Below the pieces are notes generated by a model that was given only the letters and a program-made list of their open reading frames with translations, did not search any database and was not told the origin of the DNA. The position numbers and the translations under genes were made by a program. A DNA stretch of 50,116 bases from a virus (taxonomy: Duplodnaviria; Caudoviricetes). The stretch is from positions 1 through 50,116 of the IMG/VR virus record IMGVR_UViG_3300012843_000003, one strand, 5' to 3'. Shown here piece after piece: positions 40,333-49,963 of this stretch (positions within the stretch are counted from its first letter, which is position 1; each line of letters starts with the position of its first letter).

Positions 40333-41007
40333 ATGACCGTAAACATCAGCAATCTAACGATCACGACCCCAGTGGCCACTTCATCCACCAACCCCGTAGC
40401 TCTTGAGCTCAGCGGCGCCGAAGCGATCGCTCAGTACCCAAGCGTGGTGACTGTCCTGGCCGATGGCTCAGTTCAGTTTTCGGCGCCAACCAAAGGCGCG
40501 TCGAGTAAAAGCACCCACCGCACGCGCTGCGAGTGGAAAGAGGCCAGCTACTGGTCTTTGGCCAGCGCAGCCGAGCACATCAACATGCAGGAGATGGCGC
40601 TCACGAAGGTCAACTCCGCGCAGAAAGTGGTGATCTCGCAACTGCACGTGAAGGACGATGACAGCCCGCCAGTGAAGGTCTTCTGGAGCAAAGGGAACAT
40701 CACCTTGGGCTTCCGCGAAACGTTCAACCAGGCCACGCCGAACAACACCACCCTTCTCAAAGGCGTGCCTCTGGGTTCGAAGTTCACCGTCACTATCCGC
40801 GTGCTCGCCTCGGGCGCTTTGACCGTGACCGCCAGTTGCAATGGCAAGGCCGGGTCGTCCGGCAGCCTCCACATGGACAGTTCCTGGCGCTCATCGCTGC
40901 TGAACTTCCACGGCGGCGTTTACAACCAGGTCGATTACACCGACGCCACTCCAGCTGACGACGGCTCAATCTGCATCGTGAGCGACCTAGCACTCACCCA
41001 TACGTAA
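40333..41007 (+). CDS. Polysaccharide lyase family 7 (alginate lyase-like)
   Basis: 'RTRCEWKE', 'VISQLH', 'NFHGGVYNQ' correspond to PL7 RxELR / QIH / YFKAGxYxQ; AGGAG RBS; no signal peptide. Confidence 0.8.
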   Translation: MTVNISNLTITTPVATSSTNPVALELSGAEAIAQYPSVVTVLADGSVQFSAPTKGASSKSTHRTRCEWKEASYWSLASAAEHINMQEMALTKVNSAQKVVISQLHVKDDDSPPVKVFWSKGNITLGFRETFNQATPNNTTLLKGVPLGSKFTVTIRVLASGALTVTASCNGKAGSSGSLHMDSSWRSSLLNFHGGVYNQVDYTDATPADDGSICIVSDLALTHT

Positions 41008-46835: not shown

Positions 46836-46976
46836 CTACCCGCACTTCGGCTTAGGGGCTGGAGGTGCGTTTGGCGCCTTCGGCCGATTGGCTCTTGCAA
46901 CAGGCTGAGCTCCGTTCGAATCCTCGAAAGATGGCTGCCCATCCTGATCGGTCGTAAAGATTGCGTACGTTCCCAT
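46836..46976 (-). CDS. 46-aa proline-rich peptide 2 (not in ORF track)
   Basis: MGTYAIFTTDQDGQPSFEDSNGAQPVARANRPKAPNAPPAPKPKCG; GAGGT RBS. Confidence 0.65.
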   Translation of the reverse strand: MGTYAIFTTDQDGQPSFEDSNGAQPVARANRPKAPNAPPAPKPKCG

Positions 46977-47010
46977 TTAGTTTCGACCTCTGATTGATAT
47001 TGACTAGATC

Positions 47011-47148
47011 CTATTTTTTTGGCGGCGGTGGTGCTGCCGGAGCTTTCGGCCGGACATTGATAGGCTTGCCGGGATTGGCATTGTTGATTTTTACGTCAGA
47101 ATCTGGACGAACAACGCGAGGGATAGGGCGTGGTGCTTCGCTTGACAT
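47011..47148 (-). CDS. 45-aa proline-rich peptide 1 (not in ORF track)
   Basis: MSSEAPRPIPRVVRPDSDVKINNANPGKPINVRPKAPAAPPPPKK; starts 6 nt after the DUF6338 stop. Confidence 0.7.
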   Translation of the reverse strand: MSSEAPRPIPRVVRPDSDVKINNANPGKPINVRPKAPAAPPPPKK

Positions 47149-47154
47149 AATTAC

Positions 47155-47751
47155 CTACCAGGTTTTTTCCGTGAATTCGACCCACTGTACCCGAGATGCT
47201 TCAATCGTGAACAGGTCAGCGCTGAGAGAGGTTTCCTCGCCTTCATCGTCCAACCATGCGGGATCTTGCAGTACGAACTGTCCCTCTTTGGGCTCCGTTG
47301 GAAAATGCAAAGGCCACCCATAGATTCGGCGCTCGTCGACTAGGTGCAATACAACATAGCGCTCAAACTCTGTGAACGCAGCGTACCACTCCGTCGGATA
47401 TGAGGTTTTCTTGGTGAATTTCTTATCTCTGAGCCATTTGTGCAGCCTATCCCGCGAAGCTAGATAGCATGCAGCCGCTCCGAGGCTCAGAGCGACCAGA
47501 GCAGACCAGATGGATTTAGTATTGCTCGTCCACTTGCCAAACGAATAGAAATGGTTGCCGCTCCATAAGGCCAACGACTCTATTAGACCTACGATTATCT
47601 GGATGACAAAGGTAAAAATCAGAGCCTGCACAATCTGCCCAAAGGTGTCGGGCCGCTTGAAAGCGGTAAAGGAATAAAAGATCCAGGCTGTTAGAAATCC
47701 AGGGATCAAATACTGCAGGAGAGGTATCACCTCTTTTACTAAATCATCCAT
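47155..47751 (-). CDS. DUF6338-like membrane protein
   Basis: 'LLQYLIPGF', three TM helices, 'YPTEWY...VVLHLVDERRIYGWP...WVEF'; AT-richer; start at 47751. Confidence 0.75.
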   Translation of the reverse strand: MDDLVKEVIPLLQYLIPGFLTAWIFYSFTAFKRPDTFGQIVQALIFTFVIQIIVGLIESLALWSGNHFYSFGKWTSNTKSIWSALVALSLGAAACYLASRDRLHKWLRDKKFTKKTSYPTEWYAAFTEFERYVVLHLVDERRIYGWPLHFPTEPKEGQFVLQDPAWLDDEGEETSLSADLFTIEASRVQWVEFTEKTW

Positions 47752-47856
47752 GAGCAACCACTCTTCAACTCTTGCGACTCTTAATACCCCATCCCAAGCC
47801 AAATTGCCACCATGCCGCATCCGGCCACGGAGGGCGGCGCATGCATGGAGAAAGCC

Positions 47857-48480
47857 ATGACCCTGTTCTACCTGCAGGACAGTCGTACCGATGTCGGTGA
47901 TGGTCTGATGTTCTGGGCCCTGGGCGGTGGTTACACCACCAACCTCGACAGGGCCGAACTGTTCACCCAGGAGCAAGCCTGTGGCCACCGGGATACAGAC
48001 ATCCCCTGGCCAAAGAATTACGTCGATGCCCGCGCACATCTCGGCGTCGACCACCAGTACATCAGCATGGAAGAAGCTCGCGACCAGCTGAAGGCGGGAT
48101 GCACTGTGGTCCTACAGATCCCAGGGCACTGGAATGGGAATGACATTGCCTTCGCCAGGTGGCCAATAGGCCACACGTACCGATTCGAGAAAGCACACCA
48201 CCTAACCCTTGAGGCTGCCGAAGCGATCGGCAACGCGCCAGAGGAAGCAGTGATTTGGCCTTTGGCTTACCTCAAGGAAAAGGCAAGGCGCCTGGTGCAT
48301 AAGCGGGATGTGAACATCAAAGAAGCCCTGCACGGTACCGGCATCGCGCTGGTGAAGCCACGGAAGCAGCGCAAGGCCTGGCAGCGACCGCTCAATTGCC
48401 ACGGCTGCGGACGCTTCATCAGCTGGGACGGGCGATTCCTCAACGACTGCCAGAACTGCGGCGCGAACAACTGCCCCTGA
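47857..48480 (+). CDS. Hypothetical phage protein with C-terminal Zn ribbon
   Basis: 'FYLQDSR...FWALGGGYTTNLDRAELFT...CHGC...CQNC'. Confidence 0.75.
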   Translation: MTLFYLQDSRTDVGDGLMFWALGGGYTTNLDRAELFTQEQACGHRDTDIPWPKNYVDARAHLGVDHQYISMEEARDQLKAGCTVVLQIPGHWNGNDIAFARWPIGHTYRFEKAHHLTLEAAEAIGNAPEEAVIWPLAYLKEKARRLVHKRDVNIKEALHGTGIALVKPRKQRKAWQRPLNCHGCGRFISWDGRFLNDCQNCGANNCP

Positions 48481-48558: not shown

Positions 48559-49146
48559 TTAGGGGCTTACAAACGCGCCATAAAGAACAAAAGTAAATAA
48601 TCCTACGAGCCCCGCTACCCCCGCGAGAAAAACCGCCACTGCGCCATATTTCATGCGGCGAAATACAGTTTCACCTTCTTTGACTCTACGCCATTCCACC
48701 TTGAGGATAACTGCGAAGTCTCGTACTAACTCACGGCACAACTCTGCCGATTGATCCTGTCCGTTGCCAACAGAACCCTCTAGCTTGTCCAACTTTTCGA
48801 TCAGGGCTGCATGCTCTTTTGGATTGAGTCTAAGCATGATTCGATTACACAGCAAGTCTATTTTCGCATAGTCCTTTTGATGTAACTTCCAGAACTCTTT
48901 AACCTGCTCATTGAATTCCTCTTCCGGCAGCGCACGATCGATCGCGACATCGAACACACCTTCCAGTACGTTAAACTCACCCAGCAGCTCTGAAACATCG
49001 TTGCGGAGGGACTCTATCCATGACTGGCGAAATTCAGAAGTTTTATTTTCCTTAGCTAACACCGTGACAACGAATGTGATTAACGCGGCAATTAACGCCG
49101 CTACTATTGGACCGAGTACCGGAATAAAACTGCTAATTTTTTCCAC
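48559..49146 (-). CDS. AT-richer membrane moron (N- and C-terminal TM)
   Basis: GTG start with GGGAG RBS; 'SEFRQSWIESLRNDVSE', 'LRLNP', 'LKVEWRRVK'. Confidence 0.7.
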   Translation of the reverse strand: MEKISSFIPVLGPIVAALIAALITFVVTVLAKENKTSEFRQSWIESLRNDVSELLGEFNVLEGVFDVAIDRALPEEEFNEQVKEFWKLHQKDYAKIDLLCNRIMLRLNPKEHAALIEKLDKLEGSVGNGQDQSAELCRELVRDFAVILKVEWRRVKEGETVFRRMKYGAVAVFLAGVAGLVGLFTFVLYGAFVSP

Positions 49147-49198
49147 AAAAAACTCCCTAAAAAACCTACATGCGTAACTATACCGGCCAGGAGCCATC

Positions 49199-49963
49199 AT
49201 GCCCAATCGAATCGTCTGCCAGTTCAGTTGCGGCGCCGCGTCGGCGGTGGCCACCAAGCTGGCCTTGGCCGAATACAGCGACACCCATGACGTCCAGATC
49301 GTGAACGCCTTCCTCGCCAACGAGCATGAAGACAATCGTCGGTTCGCCCAGGACTGCGAAGCATGGTTCGGCCAGCCGATCACAGTCCTACGGGACGAGA
49401 AGTATGGCGCCGACGCCCATGAGGTGTACCGACGCGAGCGCTATATGAAGGGACGCACCGGCGCGCCCTGCACCAAGATCCTCAAGCGCCGCTTGCTCGA
49501 CTCTTGGAAGCAGCCCGGTGACGTGATGGTCTTCGGCTACACCGCCGAGGAGGCCGACAGGCTCGATGACTTTCGCGAGCGTAATCCAGATCGACCAGTG
49601 ATCGCCCCACTGATCGACCGCGGGCTGGGCAAGGACGACTGCAAGGCGATCCTGCTGCGCGCCGGTATTGAACTGCCGCTGATGTACCGCATGGGCTACG
49701 AGAACGCCAACTGCATCGGCTGCGTGAAGGGCGGCGAAGGCTACTTCCGGGCGATCCGCCAGGACTTTCCGGAGCAATTCGAGGCGCTGTGCACCATCCA
49801 GGATGAACTGGGCGAAGGCTCCTACCTGTTCCGCAATCGCACTACCAACGTCCGCTTCTCCCTTCGCGATCTTGGCGACGGCCCGGTGCGCCGCAACGAG
49901 AAGCTGCCGGCCTGCTCCTTCTTCTGCGAGCTCGCCGAAGCCGACATCATCGCCAAAGCCTGA
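49199..49963 (+). CDS. PAPS-reductase-like (adenine nucleotide alpha hydrolase) protein
   Basis: 'FSCGAASAVA' PP-loop variant; 'CTKILK', 'NANCIGCVKGG', 'CSFFC'. Confidence 0.75.
   Translation: MPNRIVCQFSCGAASAVATKLALAEYSDTHDVQIVNAFLANEHEDNRRFAQDCEAWFGQPITVLRDEKYGADAHEVYRRERYMKGRTGAPCTKILKRRLLDSWKQPGDVMVFGYTAEEADRLDDFRERNPDRPVIAPLIDRGLGKDDCKAILLRAGIELPLMYRMGYENANCIGCVKGGEGYFRAIRQDFPEQFEALCTIQDELGEGSYLFRNRTTNVRFSLRDLGDGPVRRNEKLPACSFFCELAEADIIAKA

Follow-up and report, generated by a model that had tools for sequence, protein, structure and literature searches.

Proline-rich microproteins and a DUF6338 membrane protein with a predicted Sm fold form a conserved two-part module

The cassette and its membrane protein

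The window, meaning the whole stretch of 50,116 bases that was analyzed, is a virus record, and the nearest relatives of its DUF6338 protein come from Pseudomonas. On its minus strand, between two plus-strand phage genes, lies a cassette of less than 1 kb with a GC content of 50.5% compared with 61.3% for the window, in agreement with the first-pass annotation, which had described an AT-richer antisense cassette of three ORFs. Its features and the flanking genes are the following:

47155..47751, minus strand: DUF6338 gene, 198 aa from ATG (P0001), Pfam PF19865
P0001, predicted parts: membrane helices at residues 2-28, 36-67 and 76-99, a short basic helix at 102-109 and an Sm fold at about 115-196
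47153..47159, minus strand: Shine-Dalgarno-like GGTAGGT of peptide 1, overlapping the DUF6338 stop codon (from the sequence)
47011..47148, minus strand: peptide gene 1, 45 aa (P0002), based on the ORF, the family alignment and the family-wide pN/pS of 0.13
46987..46990, minus strand: Shine-Dalgarno-like GAGG of peptide 2 (from the sequence)
46836..46976, minus strand: peptide gene 2, 46 aa (P0003), based on the ORF, the profile score and a counterpart in locus L013
46504..46827, plus strand: flanking phage gene phrog_5439, context only, marking a variable accessory slot
47851..48480, plus strand: flanking phage gene phrog_2457, context only

Both small ORFs are preceded by a Shine-Dalgarno-like site, in line with the ribosome binding sites that had been assigned to them, and the Shine-Dalgarno-like site ahead of the DUF6338 gene is weak. 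No clear promoter or terminator above chance was found at the cassette. P0002 consists of the family N-terminal motif, an NNANP anchor and an RPKAP-polyproline-KK end; P0003 has an NGAQP anchor and an RPKAP-Pro-rich end and lacks the N-terminal motif. The C-terminal motif said to be common to both peptides is borne out by a Smith-Waterman score of 60, equalled by none of 10,000 composition-preserving shuffles. The N-termini do differ, as had been stated, in that the family motif is absent from peptide 2, but its front is not arbitrary, since by eye it is similar along its length to the second peptide of Pseudomonas paralcaligenes (L013). On the family profile P0003 reaches 19.3 bits, with 0 of 1000 shuffles as good, and six of the eight differences listed against near-identical copies are synonymous (the table showed 40 of 57 sites). 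A cassette about 95% alike is present on contigs from three soil RNA libraries; reads of three RNA runs, however, extend over 23-26 of 30 bins in the 19 kb around it as well and thus do not single out expression of the cassette.

Several other genes of the window were recorded. Another antisense accessory gene of low GC content lies at 48559-49176 (minus strand); both of its ends are hydrophobic, and Pfam, PADLOC, PHROGs and NCBIfam returned no family for it. By eye, a similar-looking gene occupies the phrog_5439 slot of L350. An Alginate lyase 2 gene (40333-41007, plus strand, PF08787, E 4e-46) is found in the prophage early region, and a phosphoadenosine phosphosulfate reductase-like gene (phrog_424) at 49199-49963 on the plus strand.

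The assignment of P0001 to DUF6338 was confirmed with PF19865 (E 8e-15, 55.4 bits against a curated cut-off of 26.5, residues 8-196). In its AlphaFold2 model (pLDDT 87) three long helices are followed by a short basic one and then by a domain of five strands; the three membrane helices, taken from the model helices and their hydrophobicity, fit the earlier description as a 3-TM protein. The best match of the Sm domain in VIA is the archaeal SmAP 1th7 (Z 10.1, rmsd 2.5 over 74 residues), and the superposition covers residues 116-194 with an N-terminal helix and five strands. Foldseek agrees on Sm proteins for two independent models, P0001 and the fusion P0137 described below, and heptameric archaeal Sm entries are among the fold matches listed. 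The soluble part of the DUF6338 protein is thus predicted to adopt an Sm fold. Of the small Sm/SH3-like barrel proposed before, the Sm half is retained in the predicted models, whereas the top fold matches among those listed are Sm structures rather than SH3. Basic residues occur in the loop between helices 1 and 2 and again behind helix 3, which by the positive-inside rule suggests that the Sm domain faces the cytoplasm, the compartment in which peptides lacking a signal sequence would be expected.

Aromatic residues at positions 122, 146, 150, 159 and 166 of P0001 are kept in 91-100% of the alignment rows, and several tryptophans belong to the most conserved residues of the Sm domain. Residue 150 (47302-47304) is Phe in the window and Trp in 85-99% of relatives. 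The near-invariant columns consist mainly of Gly, Pro and aromatic residues and do not suggest a catalytic site. Arg-Gly is part of the Sm2 RNA-binding motif and was not seen, by eye, at the aligned position in the DUF6338 alignments; aromatic surfaces are known to bind polyproline. A complex prediction of two DUF6338 proteins with peptide 1 (alignments used, controls not folded) gave scores of 0.24 and 0.27, below the mark of 0.32, which count neither for nor against binding.

P0001 has no match in GenBank phages, NCBIfam or PDB sequences, reaches only E 0.07 as its best PHROG value, matches nothing outside PF19865 in the ESM Atlas and has one full-length, uncharacterized match in BFVD. PF19865 itself comprises 905 clusters at 50% identity and is sporadic in its spread; within one phylum, 15 of 301 genomes gave a match that passed the cut-off. 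A match above the cut-off was also recorded in Haloferax volcanii, which served as a control genome.

Pairing of peptide genes with DUF6338

Loci were drawn from IMG/VR, GTDB genomes, metagenomes and one plasmid, and 264 loci with a DUF6338 match gave 206 distinct ones, of which 194 have at least 250 nt downstream. With a first adjacency rule a Pro-rich ORF was found beside 162 of these 194 loci and beside 40 of 1178 controls, namely other long ORFs of the same loci. As the misses were peptides that start inside the end of DUF6338 or belong to a distant clade, the rule was changed after they had been seen (wider window, new Pro and Cys thresholds, a distant-clade pattern), and under this widened rule a Pro-rich short ORF adjoins 188 of the 194 distinct DUF6338 loci compared with 47 of the 1178 control genes. 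The first-pass annotation had named homologues without such neighbours as the observation that would speak against it, and the 188 positive loci do not bear this out. Inspection by eye of the six rule-negative loci revealed a family peptide in five (one running long) and a frameshift in L082. Wherever DUF6338 is whole, a peptide gene is present (178 of 178 loci, 174 by rule and four by eye). Beside a broken DUF6338 an intact peptide is kept in eight of nine loci, and the sole broken peptide adjoins a broken DUF6338; this 9:1 asymmetry of decay is largely predicted by the 4:1 difference in gene size, and errors of sequencing may account for some of the breaks. The sample is weighted towards Pseudomonas (79 of 80 GTDB loci in one set) and towards one DUF6338 clade, and the named taxa beyond this focus are one alphaproteobacterial genome and the planctomycete Paludisphaera. 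The motif is common to Pseudomonas prophages and a planctomycete plasmid. DUF6338 and its peptides are a conserved two-part module with near-obligate linkage that is widespread among the loci examined. The cassette had been proposed as a three-gene system; the peptides indeed belong with DUF6338, but their number varies, and because most loci have one peptide the third gene is not a fixed part.

The start of the peptide gene is most often offset by -4 or -8 (76 of 188), and one to seven copies follow a DUF6338 gene, with one copy at most loci. Arrays of different peptide genes behind one DUF6338 were seen on prophage contigs, with seven in L140 (4602-5606), five in L144 (4602-5305), four in L136 (4608-5155) and three in L133; by eye, eight of the 25 rule-called later array copies look spurious. 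By rule, 13 of 193 loci have an extra peptide gene upstream of DUF6338 (L128, L130, L131, L135, L137, L139, L141, L142, L145, L146, L148, L277 and the doubtful case L175). Three DUF6338 proteins (P0136, P0137, P0177) possess an in-frame peptide-like C-terminal tail and may be true fusions or the result of lost stop codons. In the AlphaFold2 model of P0137 the core has a pLDDT of 83-98, the linker of 51-57 and the proline tail of 82-84, bearing in mind that polyproline often gets a good pLDDT by itself. The tail contains no strand in this model, which gives no support for the N-x-N motif being added as a beta strand.

First peptides have a median length of 46 aa, a net charge of +6 and 29% Pro, and they start with M-x-K-K-x-x-N-PPP, continue with a spacer that varies and with the anchor G/N-x-N-(x-N)-P, and end in R/K-P-x-polyproline-K. 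PPP is present in 170 of 188, and the N-terminal family motif in 145 of 188 compared with only two of the 25 later ones (eight of which look spurious), which keep anchor and tail and vary in their front part. Peptides of the distant DUF6338 clade carry another motif, GYQP...NPxxPPKGGSG, and are missed by the main profile (in L110, 698 of 1000 shuffles were as good). In 37 disjoint pairs of equal length the differences fall on codon positions 1, 2 and 3 in the numbers 96, 66 and 438, and pN/pS is 0.13 in the peptide frame, while the two remaining forward frames give 1.8 and 2.7. The short reading frames are therefore genes under selection, as had been argued from the two window peptides; for the window peptides themselves, the codon-position pattern suggests translation. 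A signal sequence was not found in the peptides. An amyloid-signalling reading of the stretch N-x-G-x-N-V-N, prompted by a preprint (10.1101/2024.11.07.622273), was dropped because the stretch is missing from many peptides.

Translation of homologues, also named beforehand as a check, is documented by mass spectrometry in Pseudomonas stutzeri, where, according to PMC10433244, a DUF6338 gene is followed by the genes of three Pro-rich proteins (36, 47 and 41 aa), detected from cells with 85, 114 and 44 spectra and 98-100% coverage. The DUF6338 protein itself gave no spectra there, as membranes were not analyzed. In the same text the peptides are called unconserved beyond the species and possibly de novo genes; since they share the motif described here, this statement does not hold. 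In the literature searched, mostly outside subscription journals, DUF6338 was named in PMC10433244 only, no paper gave the accessions concerned, and no description of such a system was found. Going by the available text of this paper, the module is already in print for one species, without family, fold or function.

Genomic context and lone motif genes in phages

No third gene recurs beside the cassette in a survey of 136 directly adjacent genes from 92 loci; this applies in particular to modifying enzymes, peptidases and transporters. At 81 of 154 loci the following gene is convergent, and at only 29 is it co-oriented and less than about 100 nt away. Judged by eye from the flanking gene, six viral loci occupy the same slot as the window cassette, and in related prophages this slot holds a low-GC antisense ORF in 45 of 71 cases. 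From 39 distinct candidate occupants 25 were scanned after near-duplicates and likely shadow frames had been dropped, with the NCBIfam search covering 13 proteins; 23 of the 25 have no family in the libraries tried and none matches PADLOC. One occupant is an 8xMP octameric membrane protein (L375, 4125-4829), and another gave a weak SLATT_4 match below the cut-off (L318, 3981-4484).

The cassette matches no profile of a known system, with no PADLOC 2.0 family at E 0.1 for DUF6338 and both peptides. PADLOC-profile matches were obtained for 14 of 135 neighbours compared with 10 of 113 ORFs taken from genomes at 19 arbitrary places (Fisher p 0.83), so that enrichment in defence islands is not shown; a stricter cut-off, chosen afterwards, gave 10 of 135 versus 3 of 113 (p 0.15). 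At single loci the cassette is located inside a BREX operon between brxC (BrxC) and pglX (PglX) (L214) or beside IetS, a CBASS cyclase or DruA, and directly 3' of pglW in L105. Cassettes of the GYQP clade follow grpE in L104, L109 and L110, and the gene after them is HSP70 by Pfam in L104 and dnaK-like by eye in L110. In the P. fluorescens group (L018-L092) many copies sit at a few fixed chromosomal sites, their peptides have diverged (GPDGK, NGGPPPPG) and several of the DUF6338 genes are frameshifted.

The peptide motif also exists without DUF6338. Searching IMG/VR with DNA patterns for it returned 33, 61 and 25 stretches, and in the last two pattern sets 19 of 86 stretches have a second motif at the right distance. 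Eighteen of these 19 are in ORFs of at most 115 aa with no DUF6338 within 1.5 kb, 13 of them in one family. Members of this main family (80-114 aa) follow an endolysin and a spanin gene, as checked in L419, L413 and L391, and combine an N-terminus of hydrophobic residues with the main motif in two copies, after which a GYQP stretch and a Cys-rich end often come. One lone phage family, beside a spanin gene, thereby joins the motifs of two peptide clades. Family members were recorded in L413, L419 (1333-1656), L421, L422, L437, L440, L443, L449, L459 and L464, and homologues are named from Serratia. In seven records of this family PF19865 found no match, and the same applies to all 15 lone-motif phage records searched, including the eight that are at least 90% complete.

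A different arrangement was seen in prophages of 66% GC (L382, 1456-1566; L397, L408, L488), where an ORF of 37 aa with a ribosome binding site and little more than the motif stands directly after an Rz-like spanin gene; the differences are nearly confined to third codon positions. The motif also opens, or lies within, other lone short ORFs or small proteins in L478 (two, 1489-1665 and 2235-2375), L489, L490, L494, L407 and L386, and no lone motif gene was found elsewhere in the 50,116 bases of the window. The lone genes have RBS-like sites and a third-position bias (14, 8 and 47 differences in five pairs). On the cassette profile eight of nine score above all 1000 shuffles, a test that is partly circular because the genes were picked by the motif. 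Their proteins matched neither a PHROG nor a GenBank phage protein with the low-complexity filter on.

Possible function and comparison with known systems

The likeliest logic is toxin-antitoxin-like, with parts that are new to such systems. We tentatively prefer, at somewhat less than an even chance, that the peptides bind and restrain a ring-forming membrane effector and that the lone phage genes are decoys. Docking of the polyproline motif on conserved tryptophans in the Sm part would keep the effector inactive, and coupled translation together with additional gene copies would provide peptide in surplus. Upon infection the peptide might be lost or displaced, and the freed DUF6338 protein would assemble into a ring, damage the membrane and stop the infecting phage, unless the motif-only phage genes held it off as decoys. 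More specifically, the membrane Sm ring might be a pore shut by arrays of Pro-rich microproteins, an immune switch answered by multi-motif decoys of phages, which we regard as doubtful. Linkage, selection, variation in copy number, the lone phage genes and the translation of homologues in one species are established by the data above. The near-universal adjacency, the intact peptides beside broken DUF6338 genes, the apparent fusions, the start offsets, the conserved aromatic residues, the rings that Sm proteins form, the slot context, the single loci with defence genes alongside and the motif-only genes of phages speak for a restrained effector taken as a whole, and DUF6338 and the peptides are, as is typical of toxin-antitoxin genes, a co-oriented and coupled pair that always occurs together. 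We also count in its favour the 44-114 spectra for each peptide and none for DUF6338 in the P. stutzeri data (PMC10433244), although the missing DUF6338 spectra are accounted for by the membranes left out there. Orphan antitoxins as counter-defence have a precedent in DarTG1 and AdfN (PMC11825919).

Several observations argue against this restrained effector. Toxin gene first and antitoxin second is the less usual order in toxin-antitoxin pairs, and the peptide genes are mostly 3' of the putative toxin gene DUF6338. Defence-profile matches among the neighbours show no clear enrichment over arbitrary stretches, neither the 25 scanned slot occupants nor the cassette proteins match PADLOC, and the fixed-site copies of the P. 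fluorescens group with their diverged peptides look more like domestication than an arms race. As for the decoys, the lone genes are largely in late lysis regions and could have a host target of their own.

In a rather unlikely reading the peptide itself is active as a cationic polyproline inhibitor of a conserved host or phage target, DUF6338 is a membrane anchor that would sequester or deliver it or give immunity, and the lone phage genes use the same motif against the same target. It would account for the motif in phages without DUF6338 with no need for mimicry; size, charge and Pro content of the peptides fit, and the different N-termini within an array could allow a broader set of targets to be reached. 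Proline-rich antimicrobial peptides act on the ribosome or on DnaK, and in three loci, possibly of one lineage, the cassette lies between grpE and dnaK. An antimicrobial role is also raised by the P. stutzeri authors (PMC10433244). However, peptides that are abundant in growing P. stutzeri and stay intact beside a broken DUF6338 are unlikely to be toxic to their producer, and no export route recurs beside the cassette. The same persistence beside broken DUF6338 genes is not readily explained if the peptides are activating ligands or structural subunits that gate or build a ring of DUF6338, such a ring being a channel or receptor for superinfection exclusion or membrane homeostasis and not part of a toxin-antitoxin scheme; nor are the motif-only phage genes or arrays of up to seven different peptides. 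We consider such a ring unlikely, even though near-obligate linkage, coupled translation and apparent fusions fit it equally well, the layout of helices plus Sm domain recalls MscS-type channels, and the P. fluorescens-group copies at constant chromosomal sites and the lack of a clear defence enrichment agree with it. MscS is absent from the fold matches listed, which are filled by Sm proteins.

It is improbable that the peptides are RiPP-like precursors or cargo, with DUF6338 as their exporter, protease or modifying protein. In later array copies the C-terminal motif is retained while the N-terminus changes, as it might in such precursors, and DUF6338 reportedly also occurs in biosynthetic clusters, a statement attributed to the P. 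stutzeri microprotein paper. Against this, the conserved columns of DUF6338 offer no obvious catalytic residues, and no modifying enzyme, peptidase or transporter recurs among the 136 neighbours. The near-complete coverage from P. stutzeri cells (PMC10433244) suggests intact products. Peptide export or display, put forward in the first-pass annotation, is poorly supported for related reasons, namely the missing signal sequence and the lack of a recurrent transporter or modifying enzyme. The absence of a recurrent third gene together with the convergent next gene argues against a RiPP cluster as well as against a leader peptide. Cis-acting polyproline stalling leaders, or species-specific de novo genes unrelated to DUF6338, are very improbable and already largely refuted. 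The frequent PPP would suit a stalling leader, and the de novo idea is raised in PMC10433244, but a co-oriented gene close downstream is rare, the neighbours are unrelated, and a motif reaching from Pseudomonas prophages to a planctomycete plasmid with the pN/pS given above speaks against this reading.

What is new is a family and a testable job for microproteins that are mostly missed by gene callers and that a proteomics study had taken for species-specific new genes (PMC10433244), together with selected motif-only genes in phages that have no DUF6338 match. If the restrained effector is true, the Sm fold, known for RNA binding, would be a membrane receptor of polyproline peptides, and prophage arrays and lone phage genes would stand for a defence and its counter-defence that have not been described before.

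The closest known relative is operon 9 of P. stutzeri ATCC 14405 (Pstu14405_RS12030 with SEP1, SEP5 and SEP2), which is the same module as in the window, with co-oriented short Pro-rich ORFs, the G/N-x-N-P anchor and the RP-polyproline-KK end; it has three peptides instead of two, and in the available text its authors propose no mechanism, fold or phage link (PMC10433244). With the Sm/Lsm proteins (SmAP1 1th7, eukaryotic Lsm) and Hfq, DUF6338 shares the predicted five-strand Sm fold and the N-terminal helix, yet its Sm part sits behind three membrane helices and has a peptide-gene partner. The small-conductance channels of the MscS type combine three helices and an Sm-like beta domain with a further cytoplasmic domain; the order of parts is the same in DUF6338, which lacks the further domain and has the peptide partner, and P0001 has no MscS match among PDB sequences. 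SLATT and Cap15-type effectors, the latter being 2TM-barrel membrane effectors, likewise have few membrane helices and a small soluble domain and are found in accessory prophage slots, but DUF6338 differs in its fold, gives no match to their profiles and has no nucleotide-cyclase partner. In logic the module would resemble type II toxin-antitoxin anti-phage systems with orphan antitoxins in phages, such as DarTG1 with AdfN (PMC11825919), with which it shares a two-gene design and possibly a lone small partner in phages. There both parts are enzymes of shown function, whereas here, going by genes and models, a membrane protein with a predicted Sm domain is paired with putatively disordered polyproline peptides in variable arrays.
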